Assembly (NCBI GenBank): GCA_026392455.1
Contig: JAPLCB010000011.1
Span: 355,664-419,663, forward strand
DNA: 64,000 bases
Source of the DNA: Propionibacteriales bacterium
GTDB lineage: Bacteria > Actinomycetota > Actinomycetes > Propionibacteriales > Nocardioidaceae
Reading direction: 5' to 3'
The notes below the pieces were generated by a model. That model saw only the letters and a list, made by a program, of their open reading frames with translations, ran no database searches and was not told the origin of the DNA. Within the stretch, counting starts at the first letter, position 1; every line of letters starts with the position of its first letter. Below, piece by piece: positions 1,089 through 29,991 of the stretch. Position numbers and translations under genes: made by a program.

Positions 1089-3026
<1,938 letters not shown>

Positions 3027-3030
<4 letters not shown>

Positions 3031-4121
3031 CCACCCAAGAGCTTCCCTTCCCCGGCCTGGCCGGCGTTCCGACCAACGACGAGCCGCAGAACCGCAAGGA
3101 GTACACCGCCGACCAGGAGGTCCGCTGGTGCCCCGGGTGCGGTGACTACGCGATCCTCGCCGCCGTCCAGGGCTTCCTGCCCGACCTCGGCCTGCGTCGC
3201 GAGAACATCGTGTTCGTCTCCGGCATCGGTTGCTCGAGCCGGTTCCCGTACTACCTCGACACCTACGGGATGCACTCGATCCACGGCCGTGCCCCGGCGA
3301 TCGCCACCGGCATCGCGACCGCGCGCGAGGACATCAACGTCTGGGTCGTCACCGGCGACGGCGACGCGCTCTCGATCGGTGGCAACCACCTGATCCACGC
3401 GATGCGTCGCAACGTGAACATGACGATCCTGCTGTTCAACAACCGGATCTACGGCCTCACCAAGGGTCAGTACTCGCCCACGTCGGAGCCGGGCAAGATC
3501 ACCAAGTCGACCCCGGTCGGCTCGGTGGACCACCCGTTCAACCCGGTCTCGCTGGCCCTGGGCGCCGAGGCGTCCTTCGTGGCCCGCACGATCGACTCCG
3601 ACCGCAAGCACCTGACGGCGGTCCTGTCGGCGGCGGCGGCCCACCGCGGCACCTCCCTGGTCGAGATCTACCAGAACTGCCCGATCTTCAACGACGGTGC
3701 GTTCGACGCGATCAAGGAGTCCGACACCAAGGCGGACGCGATCATCCCGCTCGAGCACGGTCAGCCGATCCACTTCGGCGCCCAGGACGAGAACGGGATC
3801 GGCTCCAAGGGGATCGCCCGCGACGAGGTCGGTGGCGGGGTCAAGGTCGTCGACGTCGTCGGTGGCGATGTCTCCGGGCTCCTGGTCCACGACGCCCACA
3901 ACCCGGACCCGACGATCGCCTTCGCGCTCTCCCGGCTCACCGACGCCGGCGTCCTGCACCAGGCACCGATCGGCATCTTCCGCTCGGTCGAGCGGTCGAC
4001 GTACGACGACGGCGCTCGCCAGCAGGTGGCCACCGCAACGGCGGGTCAGTCAACCGCCGCCGACCAGACCGCAGCCCTGGCCTCGTTGATCAACGGCAAG
4101 GACACCTGGACCGTCCTGTGA
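3027..4121 (+). CDS. korB: 2-oxoglutarate:ferredoxin oxidoreductase subunit beta (TPP-binding)
   Basis: In-frame part of ORF 2337..4121 beginning VTTQELPFPG...RWCPGCGDYAILAAV...GIGCSSRFPYY...VVTGDGDALSIGGNH. The GTG overlaps the korA stop (GTGA). The upstream 230 codons of the track ORF are an off-frame overlap of korA. Confidence 0.92.
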
Positions 4122-4130
4122 TTCGCCAAG

Positions 4131-4321
4131 CCTGAGCTCGCGAAGGCTTGGATGCGAATCAGATTGAGGGCCGAGCGCAGACCCGAACCTGAGAGGGGCT
4201 GCACTCGGTGTCTCGAAATCTGAGCCGGCCTGAGCTCGCGAAGGCGTGGATGCGAACCAGATCGAGGGCCGAGCGCAGACCCGAACCTGAGAGGGGCTGC
4301 ACTCGGTGTCTCGAGATCTGA
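4131..4321. repeat. tandem direct repeat, 2 copies, period 98 bp (copies 4131-4223 and 4229-4321, about 96% identical); each copy contains a long imperfect hairpin
   Basis: CCTGAGCTCGCGAAGGC[T/G]TGGATGCGAA[T/C]CAGAT[T/C]GAGGGCCGAGCGCAGACCCGAACCTGAGAGGGGCTGCACTCGGTGTCTCGA[A/G]ATCTGA read directly twice. The second copy contains the rarD start codon. Confidence 0.9.
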
Positions 4322-5223
4322 CCGACCAGCGGCGTGGCTTCCTCAGCGGCGTCGCGGCGTACCTGCTGTGGGGACTCTTCCCGCTGTACTGGCCGCTGCT
4401 CAAGCCATCCGGCGCCCTGGAGATCCTCAGCCACCGGGTGACCTGGTCCGTGCTGACGATGACCCTGGTGCTGCTCGCCAGCCGACGGGTGACCCAGCTC
4501 AGGGCCGTTTTCGCCGATCCCCGCAAGCGCGCTCTGCTGACGTTGGCCGCCGTCGTGATCGCGACCAACTGGGGTACCTACATCTGGGGCGTGAACCACC
4601 ACCGCGTCGTGGAGACCTCGCTCGGCTACTTCATCAACCCTCTGGTGACCGTGCTGATGGGGGTCCTGGTTCTCGGCGAGCGGTTGCGCCGGCTGCAGTG
4701 GATCGCCCTGGGCATCGCCGGGATCGCGGTCGTCGGCCTGGCGGTCGAGTACGGTCGGCCGCCCTGGGTCGCGCTGGTCCTGGCCTTCTCGTTCGGGACC
4801 TACGGTCTGGCCAAGAAGCAGGCCGGGGTCGAGGCCGTCGAGAGCCTCACCTTCGAGACGATCGTCCTGGCTCCGGTCGCGGTCGGTTACCTCGTCTGGC
4901 TGGGGGCCTCCGGAGGCGGCCACCTGGTCGGCCACGGGGCCGGCCATGCGGCACTCCTGGTCGCGACCGGAGTGGTGACGGCGGTGCCTCTGCTCTTCTT
5001 CGGAGCTGCCGCGATCCGGGTCCCGATGACCACACTGGGCCTGCTTCAGTACCTGGCGCCGGTCCTTCAGTTCCTGCTCGGCGTGACGCTCCTCGACGAG
5101 CACATGTCCGCGATGCGCTGGGCCGGGTTCGTGCTGGTCTGGACGGCTCTGCTGCTCTTCACCCTCGACTCGCTGCGCCAACGTCGCCAGGCTCCGCGGG
5201 AACCAGCCCCCGCCCCGCTGTGA
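4306..5223 (+). CDS. rarD: EamA/RarD family (DMT superfamily) transporter
   Basis: ORF 4306..5223. About 10 predicted TM helices and a GFLSGVAAYLLWGLFPLYW N-terminus typical of RarD. The GTG start lies inside repeat copy 2, so the start is somewhat uncertain. Confidence 0.8.
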   Translation: MSRDLTDQRRGFLSGVAAYLLWGLFPLYWPLLKPSGALEILSHRVTWSVLTMTLVLLASRRVTQLRAVFADPRKRALLTLAAVVIATNWGTYIWGVNHHRVVETSLGYFINPLVTVLMGVLVLGERLRRLQWIALGIAGIAVVGLAVEYGRPPWVALVLAFSFGTYGLAKKQAGVEAVESLTFETIVLAPVAVGYLVWLGASGGGHLVGHGAGHAALLVATGVVTAVPLLFFGAAAIRVPMTTLGLLQYLAPVLQFLLGVTLLDEHMSAMRWAGFVLVWTALLLFTLDSLRQRRQAPREPAPAPL

Positions 5224-5282: not shown

Positions 5283-6860
5283 ATGACAGACGTAGTGAGA
5301 CCCGGTCCGACCGCAACGTCCCCCGCCGCGTTGGCGGACGCCCCCAGCGACCCCGAGCTGATCGCGAAGGTGCGCTCCGGCGACGCCGCGGCGTACGAAG
5401 AGCTCTTCCTGCGCCACCGCGAGGTGGCGATCAGGTACGCCCGCCGCATCTCCGACAGCGAACGCGCCGAAGACCTGTGCGCCGAGGCCTTCGCGAAGAT
5501 CCTGGACCTCCTCCAGCGGGGGAAGGGTCCGGACGTCGCCTTCCGCGCCTACCTCCTGACGACGGTGCGCACGTCCCACCTCAACAACCTGCGCGGCGGC
5601 GTCCGCGAGGACCTGGTGCCGGACCACGAACCGATCAGCCGGATGACCCCGGTGATCGAGGACCCGGACGCCCGCTTCGACCAGGCTGCCATCTGCCGCG
5701 CCTTCACCCACCTCCCCGAACGCTGGCAGCGGACGCTGTGGCTCACCGCGGTCGAGGGCCTGAGCCACGACGAGGTCGGTGAACATCTCGGCATCAAACC
5801 GAACGCCGTGGCATCACTGGCGTTCCGTGCCCGCGCCGGCCTCCGGCAGGCCTACCTCAACGAACACCTCCTCAACGCACGTGAACCGGACTGCCGTGCC
5901 ACCGTCGAGCAGCTGTCCAACTTCGTCCGGGGCCGGGTCGGGCCGAGGCGCTCAGCGGCGATCCAGCTGCACCTCGACGGCTGCACCAGCTGCACGAAGG
6001 CGGCCCTGGAGCTCGCTGAGGTCGACCACCGGCTCGGCGCCCTGCTCGCACCGATCGCCCTCCTCGGAGCCGGCGGCGTCGCCCTGTCGGCCCCGACCAC
6101 AGGGCTCCTGGCCCTCCTCAAGGGGGCACTCCCCTCGGTGATCGGCGCCAAGACCGCCACTGTCGCGGGAGTGGCTGCCCTGAGTCTCGCCGTCGGCGTC
6201 GAGGTCGTCCAGCAGCAGGGCCCCCCGCCCCCGAGCCAGGTACCCGGCGTCCGCGTGCGAACGTCCCCCGAGTCAGCCGCGGGCCGGTTCACTCCCCCAG
6301 CCCACCCGCGGATCAGTGCCCCCGGCGCCACGGCCACGCTCGCTCCCTCTCTGCTCCCGACCCTGCTCCCGTTCGTGGAACCGCGACACCCGAGCCCCGC
6401 CGTCTCCCCTCCCGGGAGTCCGTCGGCCACTCCGACCACGACCCCTCCTCCGGCAGCGCCGAGCGCCCCGGCCGCCCGCTCGATGGCGATCGGGAAGACC
6501 AGTACCGAGCAGTACCAGCGCGCCGGCAACCGGTGGGACCGCGCCCTGATCGAGGTGCAGGACCCTCCTGAAGGAGCTCGGCTGGTCGTGACCACCAACC
6601 GCACCTACCAGGCCGCCCGGGCCACCACCGCGGGCACCGGCTGGAGCTGTGGTGCGCCGACCATGTCCTGGTTCGACGGTGGGCCAGGAGCCAGCAGCCG
6701 GACCGTGTGCCGCTACTCCGGCGGCGGCGACGGCTCACCGCTGCGGTTCGACTACGTCGTCGCACCGGATGCGGCCCTGGCCGCGGCTGCCAGGGCCCCG
6801 GACGGCTACCTGGACGTCTCCCTGCTCGACAACACGGTCCGGTTGTCCCTGCGCACCTGA
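5283..6860 (+). CDS. ECF sigma-70 family factor fused to a ZAS-type anti-sigma domain, TM segment and Pro/Ala-rich extracytoplasmic domain
   Basis: ORF 5283..6860. Sigma region 2 (AAYEELFLRHREVAIRYARR), region 4 (LPERWQRTLWLTAVEGLSHDEVGEHLGIKPNAVASLAFRARAGLRQAY), then HLDGCTSC (HxxxCxxC), a hydrophobic stretch LGALLAPIALLGAGGVALSAP and a proline-rich tail. Confidence 0.85.
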   Translation: MTDVVRPGPTATSPAALADAPSDPELIAKVRSGDAAAYEELFLRHREVAIRYARRISDSERAEDLCAEAFAKILDLLQRGKGPDVAFRAYLLTTVRTSHLNNLRGGVREDLVPDHEPISRMTPVIEDPDARFDQAAICRAFTHLPERWQRTLWLTAVEGLSHDEVGEHLGIKPNAVASLAFRARAGLRQAYLNEHLLNAREPDCRATVEQLSNFVRGRVGPRRSAAIQLHLDGCTSCTKAALELAEVDHRLGALLAPIALLGAGGVALSAPTTGLLALLKGALPSVIGAKTATVAGVAALSLAVGVEVVQQQGPPPPSQVPGVRVRTSPESAAGRFTPPAHPRISAPGATATLAPSLLPTLLPFVEPRHPSPAVSPPGSPSATPTTTPPPAAPSAPAARSMAIGKTSTEQYQRAGNRWDRALIEVQDPPEGARLVVTTNRTYQAARATTAGTGWSCGAPTMSWFDGGPGASSRTVCRYSGGGDGSPLRFDYVVAPDAALAAAARAPDGYLDVSLLDNTVRLSLRT

Positions 6861-6874
6861 CCCCGGTACCGGGG
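6861..6874. terminator. short palindrome CCCCGGTACCGGGG between convergent genes
   Basis: Perfect 14-nt palindrome immediately after the sigma-fusion stop codon and 9 nt before the convergent stop at 6883. Weak stem, no U-tract. Confidence 0.25.
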
Positions 6875-6882
6875 TCCGCTGG

Positions 6883-7485
6883 CTAGAGACCGAGGACCGA
6901 CGGGGAGTAGCCGCAGGCCCGCTTCAGGCTTGCCGTGGCGCGCGGGAGCTCGGCCCGGATGACCTGACCCAGCTGGGCGAGCTTGACGATCATCACCTGG
7001 CTCTGCGCCTGCAGACCCGCGACCCGGAGCTGCTCCTCGGCATCCGCGGTCGCCACCGCCATCGCCCGCCAGGACCTGGCTGCGCCGACCGCGTGCGGGG
7101 TCCCGGCAGCCTGCGCCGCCAGTCGGGTGTAGGTCGCCGCAATGACCTTCAGTCGGGTGTCGAACTGCGGACCGTCGACGATCCCCTGGGAATCGTTCAG
7201 CCCGTACCCCTGGCGCGAGTAGATCGCCAGCAGCTTCACCGTCCGGCAGTACGACGCCCCGGACAGCGGATTCACCCGCTTCTCGGGGATCGCGAATCCG
7301 CCGCCCGGCCGCTCAGCCCCCGGGGCGACGTCGCCGGGGACCTCGCTGGGACCGGCGGTGCTTCCGGTGGCCGTCGACGGATCGCTGCCACCGGAGTCGT
7401 CCCCAGCGATCAGCGCCCAACCCCCGATCACCGCCGATCCGACGAGAGCGAACGCGGCAACGATCAGGGCAACCTGGTTCTTCAT
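6883..7485 (-). CDS. hypothetical N-terminally membrane-anchored protein (last gene of the HTTM operon)
   Basis: ORF 6883..7527. Start set to ATG 7485 (GAGAAGGTG RBS): MKNQVALIVAAFALVGSAVIGGWALIAG then a Gly/Ser/Pro linker and a roughly 130-aa domain with 2 Cys. I recognise no family. Confidence 0.6.
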   Translation of the reverse strand: MKNQVALIVAAFALVGSAVIGGWALIAGDDSGGSDPSTATGSTAGPSEVPGDVAPGAERPGGGFAIPEKRVNPLSGASYCRTVKLLAIYSRQGYGLNDSQGIVDGPQFDTRLKVIAATYTRLAAQAAGTPHAVGAARSWRAMAVATADAEEQLRVAGLQAQSQVMIVKLAQLGQVIRAELPRATASLKRACGYSPSVLGL

Positions 7486-7513
7486 GGTGTTCACCTTCTC
7501 GGCCGTCCCGCCG

Positions 7514-8257
7514 TCACGGCTGGACAACCTGGTCAGCGCCCGGGAGCCGGACGTGGAACGTACGAGGAGTCGCGACGAAGTCCACCGTGGTGGTCACCCG
7601 CGACCGGGTGCTGCTCATCCGCAGCAGGCGCGGACGGCGGCCCGCGGTGAGGTAGATCCGCTGGGTAGCGTCTGCCAGTCGGAACTCCAGGACCCGGCTG
7701 CCACGCAGCGCGCCTCGACGTACGGCGGCCACGGACACGGCGTCCCGCGGATCGAGTGCGAGGAGCGACCGGATCAGGGCCCCGGGGTCCATTGCGTCCA
7801 GCAGGTACCGAGCCGATTCGGCCGGAGCGACGATCCACTTCCCCCGGGCGGCAGCTGCCGAGGCGCGGGTGTAGCCCAACCGCACCCAGTACGACGCGGG
7901 CGCCCGGATCCAGGTCAGGTCGGACTGGCGGATCATCTCCAGGAACGTCCCGTGCCCCAGCCCGACCGAGGCCTCGAAGTCACCGGTGCGCAGGTTTGCG
8001 GTGCCGCGTCGCTGCCCGATCTCAGCCTGGCCGACGGTCCCGCCGCTGACCTCGACCGCACCGAGAGCTGCGACGGAGGCCTGGAGCGACTGCATCGTCC
8101 GGCCGGCCCTGGTGGAGACCGGCGGCTTCGTGGTGGCCGTCGCGCTGCTGGAAGCGGCCGCACCGGCCGGCGACTGCGGAGGATCGGAGCTGCAGCCGGT
8201 AGCGAGCGAGAGCAGCAACGTGAGCAGAAGAGCCTGGACGGCCGGCGCCAGCCTCAT
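7514..8257 (-). CDS. putative lipoprotein (possibly LppX/LprG/LolA-like)
   Basis: In-frame tail of ORF 7514..9391 from ATG 8257: MRLAPAVQALLLTLLLSLATGCSSD (lipobox LATGC). The start overlaps the stop of the upstream HTTM gene by 1 nt (TGATG). Confidence 0.7.
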   Translation of the reverse strand: MRLAPAVQALLLTLLLSLATGCSSDPPQSPAGAAASSSATATTKPPVSTRAGRTMQSLQASVAALGAVEVSGGTVGQAEIGQRRGTANLRTGDFEASVGLGHGTFLEMIRQSDLTWIRAPASYWVRLGYTRASAAAARGKWIVAPAESARYLLDAMDPGALIRSLLALDPRDAVSVAAVRRGALRGSRVLEFRLADATQRIYLTAGRRPRLLRMSSTRSRVTTTVDFVATPRTFHVRLPGADQVVQP

Positions 8258-9207
8258 CACGAGACCCTCCACGGCAGCCGCCCCAGCCATCGACCCAGCA
8301 GGCGATCCAGCAGCCGGCGAGCCGTGAGGTACGTCGAGGTACTGACGAAAATCCCGTCGAAAGCCACCATCGCCAGCGTGAACCAGGGCAGTCCCATCAG
8401 CACCGCGATACCGAGGTGGAGCCCGATGATCGCGCCGAGGGCGACCCTGCGCGTCGACCGGTTGAGCAGCAGCACCGGGAAGTAGAGCTGGAGGAAGACT
8501 GCCGCATAGGTGACCGCCCAGACCAGGACACCGGAGCTGGTCACCAGGTCGTTGAGGAACGGCCACACCTGGTACGCGTCGCTCCGCAACGGGTAGGCGA
8601 TCGCCGTCCCCTCCCGCCACCCGATGCCTGGAATCTTGAACATGGCGGCGGCGATGTAGACGGTGACCACCTGGATACCCAGGGCGATCACCGCAGCGTT
8701 GTGCATCAGGGTCCGCGCGTGCGACCGCTTCGAGGGCAGACCCCTGCGCGCGTCCAGCGACCAGACCGACCCACATTCGGTGAGCAGCAGGAACAGCACC
8801 CCGATCCGGAGGATGTTGTCCCCCTGATCGCTGACCAGCGGGTTCATCTCCAGGATCTGGATGACGCCGAACAGGAACAGCACCCCGGCGACGCGGGTGT
8901 GCCAGCCAAGGACGAACGCGATCCCCAGCGCGATCACCACCAGGTAGACCAGGGTGAAGACGGGGCCCGGGAGATGGGCGAGGATCCCCGCCCAGGGGGC
9001 GATCCTGTCGTGCTCGCGCAGCGGCCCGTTCCAGTCCGAGGCCGCTCCGAAGAGCAGCTGACGGACCGGGAAGTTCGTCAGCAGGATGCCGAGGTACGCC
9101 GCGCCAGCCAGGATCCTCGACATCGCGACGCCGTACGGCGCCAGCTGCTCGGTCAGCAGGAAGGTTTCGACGGCACGCGCCCGCGCCCGGATCTTGGTCG
9201 CGATCAT
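8257..9207 (-). CDS. HTTM domain membrane protein (vitamin K-dependent gamma-carboxylase-like; SdpB family)
   Basis: ORF 8257..9219. Polytopic membrane protein with N-terminal LAPYGVAMSRILAGAAYLGILLTNFPVRQLLFG typical of HTTM/SdpB proteins. ATG 9207 forms an ATGA overlap with the upstream gene stop; GTG 9219 is the alternative start. Confidence 0.75.
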   Translation of the reverse strand: MIATKIRARARAVETFLLTEQLAPYGVAMSRILAGAAYLGILLTNFPVRQLLFGAASDWNGPLREHDRIAPWAGILAHLPGPVFTLVYLVVIALGIAFVLGWHTRVAGVLFLFGVIQILEMNPLVSDQGDNILRIGVLFLLLTECGSVWSLDARRGLPSKRSHARTLMHNAAVIALGIQVVTVYIAAAMFKIPGIGWREGTAIAYPLRSDAYQVWPFLNDLVTSSGVLVWAVTYAAVFLQLYFPVLLLNRSTRRVALGAIIGLHLGIAVLMGLPWFTLAMVAFDGIFVSTSTYLTARRLLDRLLGRWLGRLPWRVS

Positions 9208-9971
9208 CGGATGTCCCACGTGTCGACGTACCGGCCGAACGCCGAGCGGTCAGCGTCATCGAGGTGCGCCAGCGGTCGGACGTTGCTGACGAACTGGTAG
9301 CCCGAGGTGACCTGTTCGCTCCCGTGCGAGCGCTGGTACGTCGGTACGAAGACCTCGTTCTGCCGGTACTGGACCGCCACCACCTCGGCACCCCAGACCG
9401 CGCGCGCGATGCCGGACAGGAAGCCCTCGACCGCGAGCTCGGTCCGGGTGTACGCCCGCGCGTTCTCCCGCTCTGCTCCGTTGATCGCAGCTGCGATCAG
9501 GCGTTCGCCCTGGAGGGCGGTCGTCACTCCGACGCCGGAGACGTGGACGACCTCCTTCTGCTTCTCGCTGAGGCTGGTGAAGATCCGCAGCTGGTCGCTG
9601 GCCAGCCGGTCGGTGATCAGCAGGGTCCGCGCCGGGAACGGGTGGTAACGCAGCTGCGGACCGACCTCGCGAGCCGTCACCTTGATCCAGCTGCTCTGGG
9701 TCTCGGTACCGTCAGCGCTGCGCAACGTCCCGCGGATCTCGAAGAGGTGGTAGCCGTTGTCAGCCTCGGGAGCGAAAACGCTCCAGGCCTGGTCGAACAG
9801 CGGCACCACGTAGGAGCGCAGCCGGTCGTAGCCGACACGGTCCTTGAGAAGGTTGTTCGGGCTCACCCACAGCGCAATCGCTGCGCTGTGGAACACCACC
9901 AGGGCGAGCGCGAACCAGACCGCAGCACGAGCGGCGCGGGTCGGCGGGGGCGTTAGGGGTGCGGTGCTCAT
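9204..9971 (-). CDS. DUF5819 / SdpA-like protein, single N-terminal TM
   Basis: ORF 9204..10049. Start set to ATG 9971 (GGAG RBS 7 nt upstream): MSTAPLTPPPTRAARAAVWFALALVVFHSAAIALWVSPNN...FDQAWSVFAP. It is the usual partner of actinobacterial HTTM genes. Confidence 0.7.
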   Translation of the reverse strand: MSTAPLTPPPTRAARAAVWFALALVVFHSAAIALWVSPNNLLKDRVGYDRLRSYVVPLFDQAWSVFAPEADNGYHLFEIRGTLRSADGTETQSSWIKVTAREVGPQLRYHPFPARTLLITDRLASDQLRIFTSLSEKQKEVVHVSGVGVTTALQGERLIAAAINGAERENARAYTRTELAVEGFLSGIARAVWGAEVVAVQYRQNEVFVPTYQRSHGSEQVTSGYQFVSNVRPLAHLDDADRSAFGRYVDTWDIR

Positions 9972-10130
9972 GGGATCTCCGTACTCGTCCAGAAGAGGAG
10001 GGTGGATCGGGAAGGCGGGTGCCTGAGGGACCGTTGGGGGCCCGGCCACCGGCTGCGAGCGCCGGGGGGTGCTCTCACAGCCGTCTGGACGTGGCCGGGT
10101 TGTACGGCTTGCCCTCAGGCACCCATGGCA

Positions 10131-10154
10131 GGGGCGCGCCGACTGGCGCGCCCC
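10131..10154 (-). terminator. GC hairpin GGGGCGCGCC-gact-GGCGCGCCCC directly after the LPXTG gene stop
   Basis: Perfect 10-bp stem with a 4-nt loop, 7 nt downstream of the stop at 10162-10164 on the minus strand. No U-tract. Confidence 0.55.
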
Positions 10155-10161
10155 ACCACGT

Positions 10162-12516
10162 CTAGCTGGCGCCGACCTTCTTCCAGTAGCGGCTCGCGCC
10201 GAGCAACCGGCCGCCGACCAGCAGCAGACCCATCGCGAAGCCGAGCAGCTGGACCGGGACGCCGCCGGTGTTGGGAAGACCCGAGACCGTGGTGCTCCCC
10301 GTGATGCTTCCGGTCGTGCTCGCTGCCCCGCTGACGGAGCCGGCGGTGTCGCCCGGGGGCAGGACCACCGTGGTCGAGCCGCCGTCGGTGTTCGGGGTGG
10401 TCTGACCCACGGTGTTCCCGTCAGTCTGGCCGACCGTGTTCGATCCGTCCGTTGAGCCGGTGGCGGTGCCGGTCGTGGTGCCGGTCGTGGTGCCGGTCGT
10501 GTTCCCGATCGTGTTGCCGAACGTGTTGCCGAACGTGTTGCCCGTCGTGTTGCCGACCGTCGAACCCGAGGTCGAACCCACGGTCGTGCCCGCTACGTCG
10601 CCGATCGTGGTGCCCACCGTCGTACCGGTCGTGGTGCCGCTGATGTCGCCAACGGTGTTCCCGACCGTGTTCCCGACCGTGTTACCGGTTGTGTTTCCCG
10701 TCGTCGAGCCGGTCGTCGTGCCGGTCGTCGTGCCGGTCGTCGTGCCGGTCGTCGTGCCGGTCGTCGTGCCGGTCGTCGTGCCGGTCGTCGTGCCGGTCGT
10801 CGTCCCGGTCGTCGTGCCGCTGATGTCACCGGTCGTCGTGCCGCTGATGTCACCGACCGTGTTGCCGACCGTGTTACCAACTGTGTTCCCCGACGCGTTT
10901 CCGGTTGTGTTTCCGGTTGTGTTTCCGGTCGTGGTGCCGGTGGTCGTGCCGGTCGTGGTGCCGGTGGTCGTGCCGGTGGTCGTCCCGGTCGTGGTGCCGG
11001 TGATGTCACCGGTCGTGGTGCCGCTGATGTCACCAACGGTGTTCCCGACCGTGTTCCCGGTCGTGTTGCCGGTCGTGTTGCCGGTCGTGTTGCCGGTCGT
11101 GTTGCCGGTCGTGTTGCCGGTCGTGTTGCCGGTCGTGTTGCCGGTCGTGTTGCCGGTCGTGTTGCCGGTCGTCGTGCCGGTCGTCGTGCCGGTCGTCGTG
11201 CCGGTCGTCGTGCCGGTCGTCGTGCCGGTCGTCGTGCCGGTCGTCGTCCCGGTCGTCGTGCCGGACGTCGTCCCGGTCGTGGTGCCCGAGGTGGCACAGT
11301 TCAATCCACCGGCCGGAGCAACCGCGTCGACCTCGCCGCGCATGAAGCCGAGCTCGACCGCACCCAGGCCACTGGGGGCAATGATCGGCAGCGGAAGCAA
11401 CGAGAGGTTGGCGGTCAGGCCGTTGAGCGCACCGTGGGCATGGGTACCGTCAGCGGACTGCTGAATGTCGGTGACTCCTCCGTACGAGATCTCACCGCCC
11501 ACCAGTCCGGCCAAGGTCGTACCAAGACCGCCCGCATCCCTGAGAATCTTGTCGATCTCGATCGACATCCCGGGCTGGATGCTCAGTGACAGCGGCCCGA
11601 CGTTGATGGTCATGTCACCGAGCTCCGGTGCCACCACCTTCGCGCCGGCGGGCAGACCGTTGGCGACGGCTGTCATGACAGCACTGTCGGGCACGCCGCC
11701 ACCAGCGTTGCCACCCCACGAGACATCGAGGAATCCGCCCAGCGCGTGGACGTCCGCGAAGTCCCAGGTCGCCATCGACTGCACAGCCAGACCCTGGGCG
11801 CAGGCACGGGGGTCGGACACCAGCTTGACCTCGCTGGTGTTCTGGCCGACCTGGGCCGAGGCGAGCGGGAACAGGCTGCTGAATCCAGGGATCGCAATCG
11901 GCATGTTCAGGCCGGGCAGGCCGCCGTTGAGAAGTTCGAGCTCAGCAATGCTGGAGTCCGAGTAGGCCAGGCGTCCGCCGGCCGTGAGGACCGTGTTGTT
12001 CCAGTTGGAGTCGGACTTGCCGTCCAGGATCCCGAGCTTGCCGATCGGCGAGAGATCGAGGTTCGCGACCGGGTTGGCGATGGTCTCCAACGACCCGTCG
12101 ACCACGGTCGTCGAGTACGACTCGGTGCGTACCGGCTGGACGTTCAGTCCGATGGCTCCGATGCCGAGGGCAGCCGAGCGAGCGTAGGAGCGGGCGGTCG
12201 GATCGGCGGCGAGCTGGCCGGGAACGGCGATCTCTCCGGTGCTGGTGCCGGTGTAGATCCCCTTGTTGAGACCGGTGCTGTCGGCAACGGCGACCGACTC
12301 GCCGATGTTGGCGCGTGCGTTGACACCGCCGTACAGGAGCTCGGCCCCGACGAAGACGCCGTAGTTCCTGGTCCAACCGCTGAACGACTGGTCGCCTGCG
12401 TTCGCGGCCTGGGCGCCGCCGGCCGGCAGGATGACCAGTCCGGCGGTCGACAGGGACAGTGCGGCCGCGGCCAGCAGCTTCAGCCTGGGCCTGGGCCTGA
12501 GCTCCGGTGACATCAT
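10162..12516 (-). CDS. LPXTG-anchored cell-wall surface protein with a long Thr-Thr-Gly-Thr/Asn tetrapeptide repeat stalk
   Basis: ORF 10162..12579. Start set to ATGATG at 12516 (AAGGAAAC RBS). Signal peptide ...LVILPAGGAQA/AN, a roughly 400-aa N-terminal domain, about 270 aa of TTGT/TTGN/TVGN repeats, then C-terminal LPNTGG + hydrophobic segment + RYWKK sorting signal. Confidence 0.85.
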   Translation of the reverse strand: MMSPELRPRPRLKLLAAAALSLSTAGLVILPAGGAQAANAGDQSFSGWTRNYGVFVGAELLYGGVNARANIGESVAVADSTGLNKGIYTGTSTGEIAVPGQLAADPTARSYARSAALGIGAIGLNVQPVRTESYSTTVVDGSLETIANPVANLDLSPIGKLGILDGKSDSNWNNTVLTAGGRLAYSDSSIAELELLNGGLPGLNMPIAIPGFSSLFPLASAQVGQNTSEVKLVSDPRACAQGLAVQSMATWDFADVHALGGFLDVSWGGNAGGGVPDSAVMTAVANGLPAGAKVVAPELGDMTINVGPLSLSIQPGMSIEIDKILRDAGGLGTTLAGLVGGEISYGGVTDIQQSADGTHAHGALNGLTANLSLLPLPIIAPSGLGAVELGFMRGEVDAVAPAGGLNCATSGTTTGTTSGTTTGTTTGTTTGTTTGTTTGTTTGTTTGTTTGNTTGNTTGNTTGNTTGNTTGNTTGNTTGNTTGNTTGNTVGNTVGDISGTTTGDITGTTTGTTTGTTTGTTTGTTTGTTTGNTTGNTTGNASGNTVGNTVGNTVGDISGTTTGDISGTTTGTTTGTTTGTTTGTTTGTTTGTTTGTTTGTTTGSTTGNTTGNTVGNTVGNTVGDISGTTTGTTVGTTIGDVAGTTVGSTSGSTVGNTTGNTFGNTFGNTIGNTTGTTTGTTTGTATGSTDGSNTVGQTDGNTVGQTTPNTDGGSTTVVLPPGDTAGSVSGAASTTGSITGSTTVSGLPNTGGVPVQLLGFAMGLLLVGGRLLGASRYWKKVGAS
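10465..11290. repeat. 12-nt-period coding tandem repeat region inside the LPXTG gene
   Basis: Perfect runs of (CCGGTCGTCGTG)n at about 10709-10806 and 11165-11246, and (CCGGTCGTGTTG)n at about 11057-11166. They form three higher-order blocks separated by GCTGATGTCACC (GDISG) units. Confidence 0.95.
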
Positions 12517-12783
12517 GCGTTTCCTTAGGTAGTGCGGAGTGGGCCACGCCGTTCGCGACACACACTGAGACGGCCGCAATGCTCGTTCGCCTCGTGGGCG
12601 GCGGACGATCCTGTTTGCGCAGACTGTCGTTTTCGCCGGGAATTGACGCTGTCGCGCGGGCCGTCCCGAGGGAGCCGGAAATTCTTTGCCCGATCCGCGT
12701 GATCAGCGTGGAACAAGAGGGTCTGTCCAGGTATGTCGCCCTCTGCACGGCGGCACCCGACGCGGATTCTGGGAGGAATCGTC

Positions 12784-13812
12784 ATGCCAGCAGCCGAGCA
12801 GGAGCTCACCCTGACCGAACGCCGCTCCGCGGCCCGTCTCCGAGCGGGACACGGCGGCTCCCATGCCGAGAAGGTCAGCGACCTGATCCGGGTCGCGATC
12901 GAGCCGGCCCCCTGGGCGGCTCGCAAGCACCTCGGCGACCGCCTCTTCCGCGGACGGCTCCGGCCTGGGACCGTGGTTCTGCCGGCCAGACCGGTCTCAC
13001 CACGATCGGCCGCCGTCACGATCGGTCTGGCTTCCCGACCGATCGTGCTGCGCAGCGTCGGCGTCGCCCACCCGGTCGCCGCGAACGTCCCCTGGGTGGT
13101 TCCGCCCAACGCCGACTGGCGGATCACCGTGACCGAGCCGACCGATCTGCGCCTGGTGCACAGCCGGGAGATCCGGGACGACGTGATCGCGGCAGCGGTC
13201 TCGGCCAACCGCCCGGTGCGCTTCGAAGGGCACGAGAGCAAGATCGTCCGGGCAGCCATCCGCTCGGCAACGCCGGTCTGGGTCGACCACGACAACCAGC
13301 CGGTGGCGGACCTGGCCATCACCCCGCAACCGGGTTGGTCCTTGATCGGTGGACGGGGCGCAGCGCCGCTGGACCGCGACCAGTACAACGCGTTCCTGCT
13401 GATGATGACCTGGGCCATCGAGCAGCGCGGCAACGAAGGCGATCCTCGCGTCGCCAGCGTGGCGACGTACATCCGCAGCCGGCTCGCGGACCCGACTCTC
13501 AACACCAGCACCATTGCCGACCAGCTGCGCATCTCCCGCCGGTCGCTGCAGACACTCTTCGAGAGCGAGGGTGGCGTCGCTGTCTACGTACGTCGTCTCC
13601 GGCTGGCCGCAGTGCTGCTGCTGATCACCCAGGACCCCCGCCAGATGCCCGACCTGGAGGCGATCGCCAAGGCCACCGGCCTCGGTTCCCGCCGCACCCT
13701 GGAGCGTTCGATGCAGCAGGTCTACGGCGTCACCCCCGGGCAGGCGCGCGCCCAGCTCCTGGCCGGTCACCCGTTGCGGCCGCGCCTACCCGGAACGCTC
13801 CAGGCCAGCTGA
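12784..13812 (+). CDS. AraC family transcriptional regulator
   Basis: ORF 12733..13812. C-terminal HTH_18 region (ISRRSLQTLFESEGGVAVYVRRLRLAAVLLLI...IAKATGLGSRRTLERSMQQVYGVTPGQAR). Start set to ATG 12784 (GGGAGGA RBS); ATG 12733 is possible. Divergent from the LPXTG gene. Confidence 0.8.
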   Translation: MPAAEQELTLTERRSAARLRAGHGGSHAEKVSDLIRVAIEPAPWAARKHLGDRLFRGRLRPGTVVLPARPVSPRSAAVTIGLASRPIVLRSVGVAHPVAANVPWVVPPNADWRITVTEPTDLRLVHSREIRDDVIAAAVSANRPVRFEGHESKIVRAAIRSATPVWVDHDNQPVADLAITPQPGWSLIGGRGAAPLDRDQYNAFLLMMTWAIEQRGNEGDPRVASVATYIRSRLADPTLNTSTIADQLRISRRSLQTLFESEGGVAVYVRRLRLAAVLLLITQDPRQMPDLEAIAKATGLGSRRTLERSMQQVYGVTPGQARAQLLAGHPLRPRLPGTLQAS

Positions 13813-13832: not shown

Positions 13833-14825
13833 TCAGCTCGAGCGGTCGGCGACCACGTCGGCGAACGCATCCAGGGCGGTCCGCACCGGGCCGTCCGGAA
13901 GGGCCCCGAGGAGCCCCTTGGCCTCGGCGGCCAGGCCTGCCACGTAGGTGCGGGCCTGGTCCATCGCCGGGTGGGCGCGCAGCAGCCCCAGGGCCTCGGC
14001 GTGCAGGTCGTCGTCGGTGATCGCAGTACTGAGCAGCTCACGAAGCCGAGCATCAGCAGGGTCCGTCGAGCCAAGAGCGATCAGGGTCGGCAACGTGGGT
14101 ACGCCCTCGCGCAGATCCGTCCCCGGGGTCTTGCCGGACTCGTCGCTGTCCGAAGCGATGTCGAGGATGTCGTCGGAGAGCTGGAAGGCGACGCCGACCT
14201 TCTCGCCGTACTCGGTCAGCGCGGTGACGATCTCCTCCGGAGCACCGCCGAACATGGCGCCGTACCGGGCCGAGGTCGCGATCAACGAACCGGTCTTGCC
14301 TCCGACGACGCGCAGGTAGTGCTCGAGCGGGTCGTCGTCGGCGCCGGGACCCAGGGTCTCCAGGATCTGACCCTCCACGAGCCGCGAGAACGTCTGCGCC
14401 TGGATCCGGACCGCATCCGGGCCGAGCTCCGCGGTGAGCTCCGAGGACTTCGCGAACAGGAAGTCGCCGGTCAGGATGGCGACGTGGTTGTCCCAGCGGG
14501 CGTTCGCGGACTCCGCACCCCGACGCAGCTCGGCCTCGTCCATCACGTCGTCGTGGTAGAGCGACGCCAGGTGGGTGAGCTCCACGACGCAGGCGGCTCT
14601 CAGCACCTGCTCGGTGGGGCCGGTACCCGCCTCGGCCGCCAGGAAGCAGAGCAGCGGCCGGAACCGCTTGCCACCGGCCTCCATCAGGTGACGGGCCGCC
14701 TTGGTGACGAACGGCGCCTCGCTCTCCACGTGGGCGAGCAAGGACCCCTCGACCTCGACCATCCGTGCACGCAGGCGGTCCTCGAGCTCAGCGTCGAGGA
14801 TCGGCAGTGCCAGCGGGGAGCTCAT
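13833..14825 (-). CDS. polyprenyl diphosphate synthase (trans-IPPS, menaquinone side chain; GrcC1/HepT-like)
   Basis: ORF 13833..14825. Both Asp-rich motifs are present (LYHDDVMDEAELRRG and FQLSDDILD). The ATG overlaps the nuoN stop (ATGA). Confidence 0.9.
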   Translation of the reverse strand: MSSPLALPILDAELEDRLRARMVEVEGSLLAHVESEAPFVTKAARHLMEAGGKRFRPLLCFLAAEAGTGPTEQVLRAACVVELTHLASLYHDDVMDEAELRRGAESANARWDNHVAILTGDFLFAKSSELTAELGPDAVRIQAQTFSRLVEGQILETLGPGADDDPLEHYLRVVGGKTGSLIATSARYGAMFGGAPEEIVTALTEYGEKVGVAFQLSDDILDIASDSDESGKTPGTDLREGVPTLPTLIALGSTDPADARLRELLSTAITDDDLHAEALGLLRAHPAMDQARTYVAGLAAEAKGLLGALPDGPVRTALDAFADVVADRSS

Positions 14826-16411
14826 CTGATGAATTGTGCAGTACGACCGATCAGGTCGAGCAACGGACCCGGCACGATGCCCAGGACCAGGGTCCCGGCC
14901 ACGCCGATCCCGATCACCGAACTGGTCAGCAAGCTGGGAACGGTGACCCGCGGACCTTCACCGATCGGATCGGTGAAGAACATCACCACGATGATCCGGA
15001 CGTAGAAGTAAGCCGCCACCGCCGACATCAGGACCGCCACGATGACGATCGGCCAGGCGCCCGCCGAGAGCGCTGCTGCGAAGACCGCCCACTTGCCGGT
15101 GAAACCACTGGTCAGCGGGATCCCGGCCATACCGAGCAGCAGGAAGGCGAAGCTCCCGGCGACCAGCGGGGACTCCTTGCCCAGCCCCGCCCAGCGGGAG
15201 ATCTGGGTCGCTTCACCGGCTCCGTCGCGGACCAGGCTGACGATGGCGAACGCGGCCATCGTGGTCAGCGCGTAGGTCGTCAGGTAGAACAGGACGGCCT
15301 GCACCGGGTCGATGTCGCCGGCCTTGATCTCAGCGAGGTCCCGCGCACCCAGGAAACCGGTCAGCAGGAAGCCGGCATGGGCGATCGAGGAGTAGGCCAG
15401 CAGTCGCTTGACGTCGGTCTGGCTCAGCGCGAGCACGGACCCGACGACCATCGTCAGGATGGCGATCGCCCAGAAGATCGGCTGCCAGTCCCAGCGGGCA
15501 CCGCCGAAGGCGACGTAGAAGAGACGCAGCAGGGCGCCGAAGGCGGCGACCTTGGTGGCCGCGGCCATGAACGCGGTCACCGGCGTCGGGGCACCTTGGT
15601 AGACGTCCGGGGTCCAGGCGTGGAAGGGGGCCGCGCCGACCTTGAAGAGCAGACCGACAGCGAGCATCCCCATCCCGGCCAGGAGCAGGCCGTCGGACTT
15701 CGAGCCGCTGGCGATCGCGAACGCGATCTTGTCGTAGGACATCGACCCGGCGTACCCGTAGACCAGCGCGATGCCGTAGACGAAGAAGCCCGAGCTGAAG
15801 GCACCCAGCATGAAGTACTTCAGTGCGGCCTCCTGGCTCAGCAGCCGGCGGCGTCGCGCCAGACCGCAGAGCAGGTACAGCGGTAGCGAGAGCACCTCGA
15901 GCGCGACGAACAGCGTGAGGAGATCCGTCGCGGCCGGGAACATCAGCATCCCGGAGACCGCGAACATCAGCAGCGGGAAGACCTCGGTGTGCTCGAGTCC
16001 CTTCGCCGAGGCCTGGCGCTCGGCCTCGGTGCCCGGCAGGGCCGAGGCCTGACCGGCGAACGCGGTGACCCCTCCGTCGAGCTGGCGCTCGGCGAAGAGC
16101 AGCACCCCGAGCAGGGCCAGCACCAGGATGACGATCCAGGAGTACAGGGTCGGGCCGTCCAGCGCCAGCGCCCCTTCAGCGACGATCCGCCCCAGCTTCG
16201 GGTTGTCGGAGGTGGGGTTGATGGTGCCGAACACCCGGATCGCGGCGATCAGGGCGGCAACGACGCCGCCGGCCGCCAGGACCACCTGGACCAGGTACCG
16301 CTGCGCGCGCGGGACCGCGGCCTCGACCATGACGCCGAGGACAGCGACCGCGAGGATGATCAGGATCGGCAGGAGCAGGTCGTACTCGATGTGCGGAGCT
16401 TCGAATTTCAC
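14822..16411 (-). CDS. nuoN: NADH-quinone oxidoreductase subunit N
   Basis: ORF 14822..16411. Polytopic antiporter-like subunit, last in the nuo order. GTGA overlap with nuoM. Confidence 0.95.
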   Translation of the reverse strand: MKFEAPHIEYDLLLPILIILAVAVLGVMVEAAVPRAQRYLVQVVLAAGGVVAALIAAIRVFGTINPTSDNPKLGRIVAEGALALDGPTLYSWIVILVLALLGVLLFAERQLDGGVTAFAGQASALPGTEAERQASAKGLEHTEVFPLLMFAVSGMLMFPAATDLLTLFVALEVLSLPLYLLCGLARRRRLLSQEAALKYFMLGAFSSGFFVYGIALVYGYAGSMSYDKIAFAIASGSKSDGLLLAGMGMLAVGLLFKVGAAPFHAWTPDVYQGAPTPVTAFMAAATKVAAFGALLRLFYVAFGGARWDWQPIFWAIAILTMVVGSVLALSQTDVKRLLAYSSIAHAGFLLTGFLGARDLAEIKAGDIDPVQAVLFYLTTYALTTMAAFAIVSLVRDGAGEATQISRWAGLGKESPLVAGSFAFLLLGMAGIPLTSGFTGKWAVFAAALSAGAWPIVIVAVLMSAVAAYFYVRIIVVMFFTDPIGEGPRVTVPSLLTSSVIGIGVAGTLVLGIVPGPLLDLIGRTAQFIR

Positions 16412-17976
16412 TCGTGGCTCCCTTCAGCGGAGTGGCCGGAGGTCCCCGGCGCGAGCGGGTCCACGCTCGGGGGCGGATCGGTCTTGTCGACCTGCTGCAA
16501 GGTGTGGTCGACGGCCGGGTTGATCACCGACAACAGCGGCTTCGGGAAGAAGCCGAGCACCACGATCAGGAGCAGCACCGGCGCCAGCGAGGCGACCTCA
16601 CGGACGTTGAGGTCGCTGAAGCCGGAGACCTCCTCGCGGGTCGGACCGGTCATCGTGCGCTGGTACATGAACAGGATGTAGATAGCGGCGAGCACGATCC
16701 CGGTGACCGCGAACGCAGCGGCGACCTCGCTGTAGGAGAACGCGCCGACGATCACCAGGAACTCCGAGACGAACGGCGAGAGGCCCGGCAGCGAGAGCGA
16801 CGACAGGCCCGCGACCAGGAAGAAGCCGGCCAGGACCGGGGCTACCTTCTCGACTCCGCCGAAGTCGCTGATCAGCGCCGAACCCCGGCGCGAGATCAGG
16901 AACCCGGTGACCAGGAACAGCGCCGCCGTGGAGAGCCCGTGGTTGAACATGTAGAGGTTCGCGCCGTTCAGGCCCTGGCTGTTCATCACGAAGATGCCCA
17001 GCACGATGAAGCCGAAGTGCGAGATCGAGGTGTAGGCGATCAGGCGCGGGATGTTGTCCGAACCGATCGCCATCAGGGCGCCGTAGATGATGCTGATGAC
17101 GGCGAAGACGACCACCGCGGGCGTGGCCCACCGTGACGCCTCCGGGAACAGCTCCAGGCAGAACCGGATCATCCCGAAGGTGCCGATCTTGTCCAGCACG
17201 CTGACCAGCAGCACCGAGGTGCCGGGGGTCGCAGCCGCCGTGGTGTCGGGCAACCACGTGTGCACCGGGAACATCGGCGCCTTGATCGCGAAGGCGATGA
17301 AGAACCCGAGGAACAGCCAGCGTCCGGTCGCGGTCCCGAAGTCCAGCTGGGCGAGCTCACCGACCAGGTAGGTCGCGCCTGCGTCGGTCTTCGCCGACTC
17401 GACGTAGAGACCGATGACCGAGGCCAGCATGACCAGGCCGCCGAGCAGCGAGTAGAGCAGGAACTTGACCGCGGCCCGGGCCCGGTTGGCGCCACCGTAC
17501 CCACCGATCAGGAAGTAGATCGGGATCAGCGTGGCCTCGAAGAAGACGTAGAACAGGAAGACGTCGGTCGCGGCGAAGACGCCGACCGCGAGGCCCTGCA
17601 GGGCCAGCATCCAGGCGAAGAACGCCTTGGACGACCAGCGCCCCTGGTCACCGTCGTTCCAGGACGCGAGCATCACCACCGGCGCCAGGATCACGGTGAG
17701 CATCACCAGGGTCAGGCCGACCCCGTCGACCCCGAGCGCGTAGTGCGCCCCGAACGACTTGATCCACTCGTGCTGCTCGGCGAACTGGTACACCTTCGAG
17801 GAGTCGGTGTCGTAGTTGGCCGCCATCGCGATCCCGACGGCAAGCGTCGCGACCGAGGTGCCGAGGGCGAGCTGCTTGGGCAGCAAGGTGCCCAGCGAGG
17901 CCGGCAGCAGCACCAGGACGATGGCGCCGACGATCGGCAGGAACAGCAGCAGGGAGAGCCACGGGAAGTCGTTCAT
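16408..17976 (-). CDS. nuoM: NADH-quinone oxidoreductase subunit M
   Basis: ORF 16408..17976. MNDFPWLSLLLFLPIVGA N-terminus, antiporter-like subunit, positioned between nuoL and nuoN. Confidence 0.95.
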   Translation of the reverse strand: MNDFPWLSLLLFLPIVGAIVLVLLPASLGTLLPKQLALGTSVATLAVGIAMAANYDTDSSKVYQFAEQHEWIKSFGAHYALGVDGVGLTLVMLTVILAPVVMLASWNDGDQGRWSSKAFFAWMLALQGLAVGVFAATDVFLFYVFFEATLIPIYFLIGGYGGANRARAAVKFLLYSLLGGLVMLASVIGLYVESAKTDAGATYLVGELAQLDFGTATGRWLFLGFFIAFAIKAPMFPVHTWLPDTTAAATPGTSVLLVSVLDKIGTFGMIRFCLELFPEASRWATPAVVVFAVISIIYGALMAIGSDNIPRLIAYTSISHFGFIVLGIFVMNSQGLNGANLYMFNHGLSTAALFLVTGFLISRRGSALISDFGGVEKVAPVLAGFFLVAGLSSLSLPGLSPFVSEFLVIVGAFSYSEVAAAFAVTGIVLAAIYILFMYQRTMTGPTREEVSGFSDLNVREVASLAPVLLLIVVLGFFPKPLLSVINPAVDHTLQQVDKTDPPPSVDPLAPGTSGHSAEGSHE

Positions 17977-18067
17977 CGGGGTCCACCCTTCAGGCGACCG
18001 AGCGAGAGCCGCTGCTCGTATCCAGTCGAGATCACCGCGCGCGTAGCGCTTGCCATCAGTACTCGTC

Positions 18068-20002: not shown

Positions 20003-20018
20003 GGCGGTCTAACTCTCC

Positions 20019-20318
20019 TCAGTACTTCAGCAGGCTCGCGTCGTCGACCGAGGCCGAGCGACGAGTGCGGAAGATGGTCATGATGATCGCAAGTCCGACG
20101 ACCACCTCGGCAGCGGCGACGACCATCACGAAGAACGCGGCGATCTGGCCCTCGAGGTTGCCGTTGGCGCGGGAGAAGGTGATCAGGAGCAGGTTGCTCG
20201 CGTTCAGCATCAGTTCGACGCACATGAACACCACCAGCGCGTTGCGCCGGGTCAGCACCCCGATGCAGCCGATCGTGAACAGGATCGCGGACAGGATCAC
20301 GAAGGGTTCGGTGCTCAC
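20019..20318 (-). CDS. nuoK: NADH-quinone oxidoreductase subunit K
   Basis: In-frame tail of ORF 20019..21140 from GTG 20318: [44 protein letters not shown], 99 aa, 3 TM. GTGA overlap with nuoJ. Confidence 0.93.
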
Positions 20319-29987: not shown

Positions 29988-29991
29988 GTGA

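Follow-up and report, generated by a model that had tools for sequence, protein, structure and literature searches.

To our knowledge, no protein substrate has been assigned to the bacterial homologues of vitamin K-dependent carboxylase, although these were recognised about twenty years ago. We analysed a locus with such a homologue in a window of 64,000 nucleotides (nt) from a Propionibacteriales bacterium (Nocardioidaceae; GenBank assembly GCA_026392455.1, contig JAPLCB010000011.1, positions 355,664 to 419,663 of the forward strand). At this locus a gene for a wall-anchored surface protein is followed by genes for a DUF5819 protein (g1), a membrane protein with an HTTM domain (g2) and two further proteins (g3 and g4). 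The association of a wall-anchored surface gene with a split carboxylase-like pair across many actinobacterial genera points to a menaquinone-dependent step of surface-protein maturation that has not been described so far.

Several described systems resemble parts of this locus. In Bacillus subtilis the SdpA/SdpB pair is needed to mature SdpC, and the paralogous pair YitP/YitO is found with YitM; such SdpAB-type pairs are encoded together with a Sec-secreted client that bears a C-terminal hydrophobic segment (PMC6818787). For human vitamin K-dependent carboxylase (GGCX), cryo-electron microscopy identified K218 as the base that deprotonates vitamin K hydroquinone, F299 and S300 as residues lining the pocket for naphthoquinone and CO2, and N158, N159 and H160 as residues that hold the substrate glutamate (bioRxiv 10.1101/2025.02.09.637231; PMC12647623). 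MloH is a fused bacterial vitamin K-dependent carboxylase from malonomycin biosynthesis (Law et al. 2018, cited in bioRxiv 10.64898/2026.08.19.745780 and PMC12647623). According to these secondary descriptions, on which our comparison is based, carboxylase chemistry has been demonstrated for MloH, an HTTM enzyme of actinobacteria, which shows that bacterial members of the family can be catalytically active. A preprint reports a DUF5819/HTTM pair of Melghirimyces thermohalophilus with the same two Pfam families in the same adjacency as g1 and g2, for which AlphaFold 3 (AF3) predicts a complex like the whole of GGCX with a menaquinol pocket; in this model the DUF5819 domain occupies the position of the luminal clamp of GGCX, and MloH is named there as a relative (bioRxiv 10.64898/2026.08.19.745780).

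The locus differs from each of these systems. As in SdpAB-SdpC and YitPO-YitM, adjacent genes code for a small single-pass protein, a polytopic HTTM-type protein and a Sec-exported client with a hydrophobic segment at its C-terminal end. However, the client gene comes before the pair, and the client is a wall-anchored acidic surface protein of 800 amino acids (aa) instead of a toxin precursor of 200 aa. No immunity genes of the SdpI/SdpR type were seen at the locus, and no toxin is implied. An earlier note made from the sequence of this window had called g1 SdpA-like and g2 SdpB-like, and these labels turned out to be weak. The g2 protein matched the SdpB model TIGR04033 (export_SdpB) partially (E 5e-19), with 68.9 bits against a curated cut-off of 178.4, and g1 and three of its homologues from other loci matched no NCBIfam family at E<=10, including any SdpA-type model. 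In agreement with the same note, NCBIfam gave no SdpC-family match for the surface protein, g3 or g4. The position of the client is held by a different secreted protein and not by a precursor of the SdpC type, and we take the analogy to the Sdp and Yit systems as a functional one. MloH, as far as described in the citing papers, is a single fused protein from a secondary-metabolite cluster and acts on an intermediate of a polyketide synthase-nonribosomal peptide synthetase (PKS-NRPS). The locus holds no genes for PKS, NRPS or ribosomally synthesised and post-translationally modified peptides; the associated gene is that of the surface protein. The HTTM protein of M. thermohalophilus carries an additional DCC1-like domain that g2 lacks, and the preprint names no client protein and mentions no sortase substrates (bioRxiv 10.64898/2026.08.19.745780).

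The DUF5819-HTTM pair

The minus-strand sequence from 9971 to 6883 reads as four consecutive genes that are joined as the earlier note had described. The DUF5819 gene g1 (9204-9971, minus strand; ATG 9971-9969, stop TGA 9206-9204) has GGAG at 9980-9977 just 5′ of its start codon and shares an ATGA overlap (9207-9204) with the HTTM gene g2 (8257-9207, minus strand; ATG 9207-9205, stop TGA 8259-8257), which codes for a polytopic membrane protein of 316 aa. The junction of g2 and g3 is TGATG, with the A at 8257 common to both genes. The lipoprotein gene g3 (7514-8257, minus strand; ATG 8257-8255, stop TGA 7516-7514) is separated by a spacer of 28 nt (7513-7486), holding GAAGGTGA, from g4 (6883-7485, minus strand; ATG 7485-7483, stop TAG 6885-6883), which is preceded by its own ribosome-binding site (RBS) and codes for a small anchored extracytoplasmic protein with two Cys. 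The sequence alone is compatible with either of two starts for g1 (ATG 9971 or GTG 10049) and for g2 (ATG 9207 or GTG 9219). Since third-position GC in these four open reading frames (ORFs) is as high as 0.85-0.91 in window DNA of 69% GC, we regard g1-g4 as real genes. All four products are predicted to be membrane-bound or extracytoplasmic.

The product of g1 comprises an N-terminal transmembrane (TM) helix and an extracytoplasmic domain, and has the conserved motif F-x-Q-x-W-x-x-F-A-P. It matched the Pfam family DUF5819 (PF19136) with 77 bits (gathering cut-off 27.1), while g2 matched HTTM (PF05090) with 55.2 bits (gathering cut-off 27.7) over profile positions 49-256 of 259; hidden Markov model (HMM) searches hence confirm the two family assignments made before. 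The nearest relatives of g2 are found in Marmoricola, Nocardioides and Aeromicrobium, which places the window in the Nocardioidaceae.

The proposed homology of the HTTM core to vitamin K-dependent carboxylase was also borne out, as a profile of 30 g2 homologues matched the human GGCX chains in the PDB with E = 2.2e-7. Four residues of g2 that are invariant in the 30 homologues, K191, W197, H264 and F276, align with K218, W223, H287 and F299 of human GGCX, and T277, which is always Ser or Thr, aligns with S300. These matches hold in single-sequence and profile alignments alike. The membrane core of g2 consequently has the catalytic lysine (human K218) as K191, and the naphthoquinone/CO2 pocket (F299, S300, W223) as F276, T277 and W197; the quinol-activating part of the enzyme looks conserved. 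By homology, the active side would face away from the cytoplasm and the substrate would be an exported protein, as for GGCX. No luminal propeptide-binding domain is fused to the core: g2 ends after the HTTM domain, and the extracytoplasmic domain is the separate g1 protein. Unlike GGCX, the enzyme of the locus is split in two polypeptides with the non-membrane domain encoded first, the locus has no propeptide or Gla-domain-like substrate, and the cofactor would be menaquinol. We propose that g2 is the catalytic subunit, a menaquinol-binding and oxygenating core, and, in line with the AF3 model of the homologous pair, that g1 may be the counterpart of the luminal clamp part of the carboxylase.

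For comparison, loci were gathered by HTTM similarity within Actinomycetes. A scan seeded with the g2 alignment, with one genome per species, gave 80 loci, and together with the window and two contigs found by protein look-up the set comprises 83 loci (cited below by number where needed). The scanned loci belong to Nocardioidaceae, Jiangella and relatives, Georgenia, Actinotalea, Pseudactinotalea, Nesterenkonia, Leucobacter, Microbacterium, Gulosibacter and several lineages of metagenome-assembled genomes (MAGs). A DUF5819 gene lies within 400 bp upstream of 100 of the 103 HTTM copies in the 83 loci, which represent more than 15 genera or families, and we therefore consider DUF5819-HTTM a fixed unit. 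Outside the clade of the window, the genes downstream of the pair vary and are often on the opposite strand. The other flanking genes that were tested are unrelated housekeeping genes and change by lineage as well (a major facilitator superfamily transporter, acyl-CoA oxidase, RecQ, GH3, histidine phosphatase and others). Four loci from Aeromicrobium and MAGs (L032, L029, L005 and L014) have two to three DUF5819-HTTM pairs of different HTTM clades, interleaved with different surface-protein genes. ORFs of 500-630 aa that seemed to fuse DUF5819 with HTTM were rejected as artefacts of ORF over-extension in high-GC DNA. In the searchable literature we found no demonstrated function for any DUF5819/HTTM pair, as the earlier note had supposed, and a search for HTTM together with LPXTG and related terms returned no paper describing an association of the pair with sortase substrates.

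The surface-protein gene upstream of the pair

A large surface protein had previously been listed as a mere neighbour of the four genes. Instead, it proved to be a partner conserved throughout the family. Upstream sequence of 1 kb or more is available at 66 loci. In 62 of these, an ORF with a sorting signal ends just before the first DUF5819 gene, and the count is 64 of 66 when two choice-of-anchor G proteins of Leucobacter that lack LPxTG (L047 and L058) are included. The sorting motif is LPxTG in most loci and LAxTG in Microbacteriaceae and Nesterenkonia. This sortase substrate is the sole neighbour of the pair that is conserved across lineages; no sortase was detected among the conserved neighbour clusters tested with Pfam.

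The surface protein of the window has 805 aa and is encoded at 10162-12516 on the minus strand (probable start ATG 12516; TTG 12579 in the mechanical ORF). From its N-terminus (RPRPRLKLLAAAALSLSTAGLVILPAGGAQA) it consists of a signal peptide, a conserved all-beta domain (about 370 aa, two invariant Cys), a stalk rich in Thr, Gly and Asn, the LPNTG motif, a hydrophobic segment and a basic tail, and the C-terminus reads ...GLPNTGGVPVQLLGFAMGLLLVGGRLLGASRYWKKVGAS, a sorting signal. Tandem Repeats Finder and the translation place an array of about 69 copies of a 12-bp repeat at 10456-11286 (minus strand), which codes for the (T-T-G-T/N) stalk. The repeat unit is GCCGGTCGTGGT on the plus strand, and arrays of such kind are prone to assembly collapse and length variation. 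Quite different stalk repeats occur in relatives (ATDTS, TDPTA, GTDNS, DA and EDGN).

The N-terminal domains of the upstream proteins fall into at least three types without detectable mutual similarity (choice-of-anchor G, the window type and an Aeromicrobium type), and an SD-repeat type also occurs. Because these types are mutually dissimilar, the adjacency to the pair is not explained by shared descent of one gene pair. Choice-of-anchor G proteins (NF033766) are found at about 35 loci, with E values of 1e-55 to 1e-79. Single-linkage clustering had joined the window protein to them; we rejected this assignment, since the link was due to repeats and the inclusion of close relatives. The window protein had no Pfam or NCBIfam domain and did not match NF033766 even at E<=10, an HMM built from 33 choice-of-anchor G neighbours, with close relatives of the window protein left out, gave no significant match to it, and hhalign returned a probability of 10%. 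By these comparisons the window surface protein is a separate small family, with five homologues of its N-terminal domain in a large protein collection. A PDB sequence search with this domain gave no match. Its AlphaFold2 (AF2) model had a predicted local distance difference test (pLDDT) score of 61, and the Foldseek matches to porins (TM-score 0.1-0.17) are meaningless given the low confidence of the model.

The association also holds when it is approached from the surface protein. All window-type homologues with readable downstream DNA precede DUF5819-HTTM, without exception, at eight genome or Joint Genome Institute (JGI) loci and on four metagenome contigs. Besides the window, these loci are L001-L003, L043, Nesterenkonia L042, Aeromicrobium marinum L082 and the JGI contig L081. 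A metagenome scan seeded with the surface domain had yielded eight loci, of which five have downstream sequence, and in all five DUF5819-HTTM is next (one is L081 again and four are new); the remaining three stop at the contig end. The metagenome contig L090 has a DUF5819-HTTM pair (3002-4878; 7896-9137 is listed with it) about 3 kb upstream of a window-type surface gene, and ends just after the surface-domain match.

In Jiangella, Haloactinopolyspora and Phytoactinopolyspora, two choice-of-anchor G genes are followed by two DUF5819-HTTM pairs (L036, L037, L039, L045, L046, L056, L057, L059 and L080), and these pairs belong to two separate old paralogue clades of the HTTM tree. More generally, the clades of this tree largely track the type of the upstream protein. 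The mature upstream proteins are very acidic and nearly free of Lys and Arg (D+E 6-28%, K 0-3%, R 0-3%). The two Leucobacter proteins without LPxTG (L047 2955-6890 and L058 2925-6890) have no hydrophobic C-terminus and end in a Cys-containing sequence (...QRYCIPKDVYGVF...NNRPSC); their genes still stand before DUF5819-HTTM. A recognition motif at the mature N-terminus, common to the client types, was considered and rejected: strings like 'GD[EQ]S' are present and are not conserved within the window-type family.

A GC hairpin with the core GGGGCGCGCC-AGTC-GGCGCGCCCC and no U tract lies at 10124-10160 (minus strand), starting 2 nt after the stop codon of the surface gene. A segment of 204 nt spanning the spacer between this gene and g1 folds with z = -6.1. 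Among 81 sortase-signal ORFs, mostly surface genes that precede the pair, 73% have a comparable hairpin within a few tens of nt of the stop. In the related loci (L001-L080) these hairpins are perfect GC stems of typically 12-22 bp with a median z-score of -4.5. A simple terminator scan did not call the hairpin because it has no T run, and a scan of this GC-rich region for consensus promoters and terminators gave no useful match. The hairpin is probably a leaky terminator or a structure stabilising the mRNA or its 3′ end between the structural gene and the enzyme genes. One would expect this arrangement for a structural gene that is expressed in excess, with read-through into the genes that follow.

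Accessory genes and surroundings of the operon

The earlier note had proposed a LolA/LppX-like lipoprotein for g3, of which the fold stood and the assignment to the LppX_LprAFG family did not. The lipobox residues G21-C22 are invariant in eight homologues, and the AF2 model has a mean pLDDT of 81.5, with values >90 over residues 50-247. Top Foldseek matches were LolA, LprF, LprG and LppX (E about 1e-6, target TM-score 0.42-0.63), the highest TM-scores being those of LprG and LprF (0.56-0.63). Forty PDB folds matched at E<=1e-3, almost all of them LolA, LprG, LprF, LppX or, lower down, RseB. Thus g3 has both a lipobox and, in the model, a LolA-like half-barrel fold with helices, as these proteins do. 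In contrast, sequence identity to them is about 10%, and neither g3 nor g4 matched any Pfam family at E<=0.1, including LppX_LprAFG for g3. As judged from the model, the likeness of g3 to LppX/LprAFG is one of fold only.

The description of g4 as a TM-anchored protein with two Cys was corroborated by its relatives. The protein is anchored in the membrane at its N-terminus, by a TM helix or, in some members, by a lipobox, and its C-terminal domain is mostly conserved; C80, C191, W139 and R111 are invariant. A PDB sequence search with g4 gave no match. Both families are very small, with eight homologues of g3 in 5.8 billion clusters and 14 full-length relatives of g4 among 1.84 billion cluster representatives.

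Conservation of the unit of g1-g4, which had been suggested as a check, was found in one small clade and not beyond it. HMMs of g3 and g4 matched seven of the 83 loci (the window, L001, L002, L003, L034, L043 and L082), which form one clade of the HTTM tree, and the four new metagenome contigs with a window-type surface gene all carry both genes. All other lineages have the pair without g3 and g4. A weak g4-like match was seen in L081, and Nesterenkonia L042 has the window-type surface protein and the pair without g3 or g4. A. marinum (L082) has the full layout of the window, with surface protein, DUF5819, HTTM, a g3 homologue, a g4 homologue of 175 aa and the convergent sigma/anti-sigma gene described below. 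The two genes track the window-type surface protein and not the enzyme pair in general, and from this distribution we read them as putative clade-specific helpers.

The surroundings of the operon contain the genes named previously, a sigma/anti-sigma fusion, the large surface protein and several menaquinone genes. Convergent to g4 is a gene (5283-6860, plus strand) for a fusion of 525 aa of an extracytoplasmic function (ECF) sigma factor and a zf-HC2 anti-sigma factor (Pfam Sigma70_r2, Sigma70_r4_2 and zf-HC2). In this ORF, ECF sigma regions 2 and 4 and zf-HC2 are joined to a TM segment and an extracytoplasmic C-terminal stretch of about 250 aa that is rich in Pro; over the N-terminal part, the counterparts in Marmoricola L001 and L002 show 70% identity. 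The fusion gene occupies the same convergent position in L001, L002 and A. marinum L082, where the gene caller gives two overlapping genes for this region, and is a possible regulator. Between the convergent ends of the two genes, a perfect palindrome read from the sequence (GACCCCGGTACCGGGGTC, 6859-6876, no strand assigned) is a possible bidirectional terminator and overlaps the stop codon of the sigma/anti-sigma gene. Upstream of the surface gene and divergent from it lies a gene for an AraC-type regulator (12733-13812, plus strand; Pfam HTH_18 / HTH_AraC). Its homologues are found at the same position in L001-L003 (cluster c30), and an HTH_18 gene lies upstream in L081.

The window beyond the operon (13833-30351 and 32226-47515) is respiratory housekeeping. 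By Pfam it holds genes for a polyprenyl synthase (13833-14825), MenF-like (32226-33503), MenC-like (42473-43459) and MenE-like (43452-44567) proteins, MenA/UbiA (44524-45402) and a CcsA-like protein (46520-47515). An L,D-transpeptidase with a peptidoglycan-binding domain is encoded at 30510-32216. Judged from the ORF translations, the stretch 14822-30351 looks like a nuo operon, with apparent heme genes further on. Long ORFs with Arg/Pro-rich N-termini at 22883-25492 and within 40019-42485 have starts that are probably over-extended, as a simple ORF caller was used; an ORF of 498 aa (40989-42485) had no Pfam match. The earlier note had pointed out the menaquinone genes in the window. Since only the two Marmoricola relatives share this proximity, we discount it as apparent local synteny, not a functional link, and the only weight of these genes is that these organisms make menaquinone.

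Possible roles of the pair

We favour, with a probability of about one half, a functional unit of five genes, in which the surface gene and the hairpin precede DUF5819, HTTM, g3 and g4 and the pair acts as a split menaquinol-dependent, carboxylase-like maturase of the co-encoded surface protein. The HTTM subunit would be the membrane core that binds menaquinol, and its active-site lysine would start menaquinol oxygenation, while the single-pass DUF5819 subunit would supply the extracytoplasmic domain that is the substrate clamp of the fused animal enzyme. The pair would act at the outer face of the membrane on the Sec-exported, very acidic surface protein, held in the membrane by its C-terminal sorting signal until sortase links it to the wall, and would either modify this protein or be otherwise required for its maturation. 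The hairpin may let the surface gene be expressed in excess over the enzyme genes, and the four genes after it would be translationally coupled. The g3 and g4 proteins may be accessory factors of the clade that uses the window-type surface protein, and g3 may handle a lipid ligand such as quinone. As to the chemistry, we consider it possible, yet doubtful, that DUF5819-HTTM pairs are bacterial protein-modifying relatives of the carboxylase that use menaquinol and oxygen at the outer face of the membrane, and that they carboxylate the co-encoded, extremely acidic wall-anchored proteins or modify them by means of the strong base arising from quinol oxygenation.

Several observations weigh against this interpretation. 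The Glu pocket N158-N159-H160 of GGCX is replaced in g2 by an invariant segment, D127-Q128-G129-D130-N131, with Gly at the place of His160, although alignment confidence in this segment is low. The substrate pocket thus looks different, and since the Glu-pocket residues are replaced, gamma-carboxylation of Glu as in animals is not implied; the analogy to GGCX appears to be structural and partly catalytic, and orthology as a Glu gamma-carboxylase is not supported. No recognition motif or domain common to the upstream proteins was detected on which one enzyme family could act. At L029 and L038, where the upstream sequence is long enough, no anchored protein is seen, and many of the 83 loci are phylogenetically related by descent. 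The reverse test covers the window-type surface proteins and not choice-of-anchor G. The hairpin and the gap of 190 nt could mean that the surface gene is a separate transcription unit. We infer complex formation, topology, transcription, the role of the surface protein as client and any activity or chemistry from what was read directly, which is the gene structure, the family assignments, the conserved catalytic-type residues, the conservation of gene order and the fold of g3.

Other explanations start from the same features. The TGATG overlap of g2 and g3, the position of g4 28 nt further with its own RBS, the presence of g3 and g4 directly downstream of HTTM in all seven genome loci of the clade and on the four metagenome contigs, and the predicted membrane-bound or extracytoplasmic location of all four products would also suit a unit of g1-g4 only, with g3 or g4 as substrate or obligatory partner of the pair and the surface protein as a mere neighbour. 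However, about 75 other loci have DUF5819-HTTM without either gene, so g3 or g4 cannot be a general substrate; together with the tiny size of both families (8 and 14 relatives), and with L042 and L081, where the window-type surface protein and the pair occur without g3 and g4 or with only a weak g4-like gene, this makes such a unit unlikely. The divergent Glu pocket could likewise mean that the pair involves no quinone chemistry and is an export, processing or quality-control factor for proteins with a C-terminal hydrophobic segment. SdpC and YitM are secreted Bacillus clients with C-terminal hydrophobic domains that are matured by proteolysis (PMC6818787), and a hydrophobic sorting signal likewise stands at the C-terminus of almost all actinobacterial clients. 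On the other hand, the invariance of the residues equivalent to the catalytic Lys and the quinone-pocket Phe, and the constant Ser or Thr at the pocket Ser position, speak for retained quinol chemistry, and Leucobacter L047 and L058 keep the pair although their choice-of-anchor G protein has no hydrophobic C-terminus. We therefore hold a non-enzymatic role to be improbable.

The mutually unrelated N-terminal domains of the clients, the lipid-carrier fold of g3 and the fact that MloH, the one bacterial HTTM enzyme of known function that we came across, has a small-molecule intermediate and no protein as its substrate are what might be seen if the adjacency reflected shared regulation or an envelope effect, with the pair modifying a lipid or wall component such as a polyprenol-linked intermediate. 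That clients and pairs are duplicated one to one in Jiangella, and that HTTM clades track client type, agrees better with a specific protein partner, and no gene for wall or lipid biosynthesis is co-conserved; we regard an envelope substrate as quite unlikely. A putative relatedness of HTTM to the DoxX and MauE families would suit a pair that acts as a quinone-linked thiol oxidase and makes disulfides in the co-encoded exported proteins, and such a role would agree with the exactly two invariant Cys of the window-type surface domain and of g4, with the two Cys of the Aeromicrobium-type upstream proteins and with the DCC thiol-disulfide oxidoreductase-like domain that is fused in the pair of the preprint (bioRxiv 10.64898/2026.08.19.745780). 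Yet the mature protein is entirely free of Cys in more than half of the listed choice-of-anchor G clients. With many clients lacking Cys, we rejected disulfide formation as a general function and rate the thiol oxidase as very unlikely.

Returning to the maturase interpretation, the locus and its relatives provide a genetically linked class of candidate substrates, sortase-anchored, Lys-poor and acidic surface proteins that include the uncharacterised choice-of-anchor G proteins. Through them, DUF5819 and choice-of-anchor G, both families of unknown function, gain a functional context. Because the candidate substrates occur in culturable genera (Aeromicrobium, Microbacterium, Leucobacter, Jiangella, Nesterenkonia and Georgenia), the question of function is testable. 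If the chemistry considered above is true, the layout of substrate gene, hairpin and enzyme genes would parallel that of peptide-modification operons, Actinomycetes would have a family of adhesins or metal-binding wall proteins whose modification depends on menaquinone, and Gram-positive bacteria would have an extracytoplasmic protein modification of a new kind.

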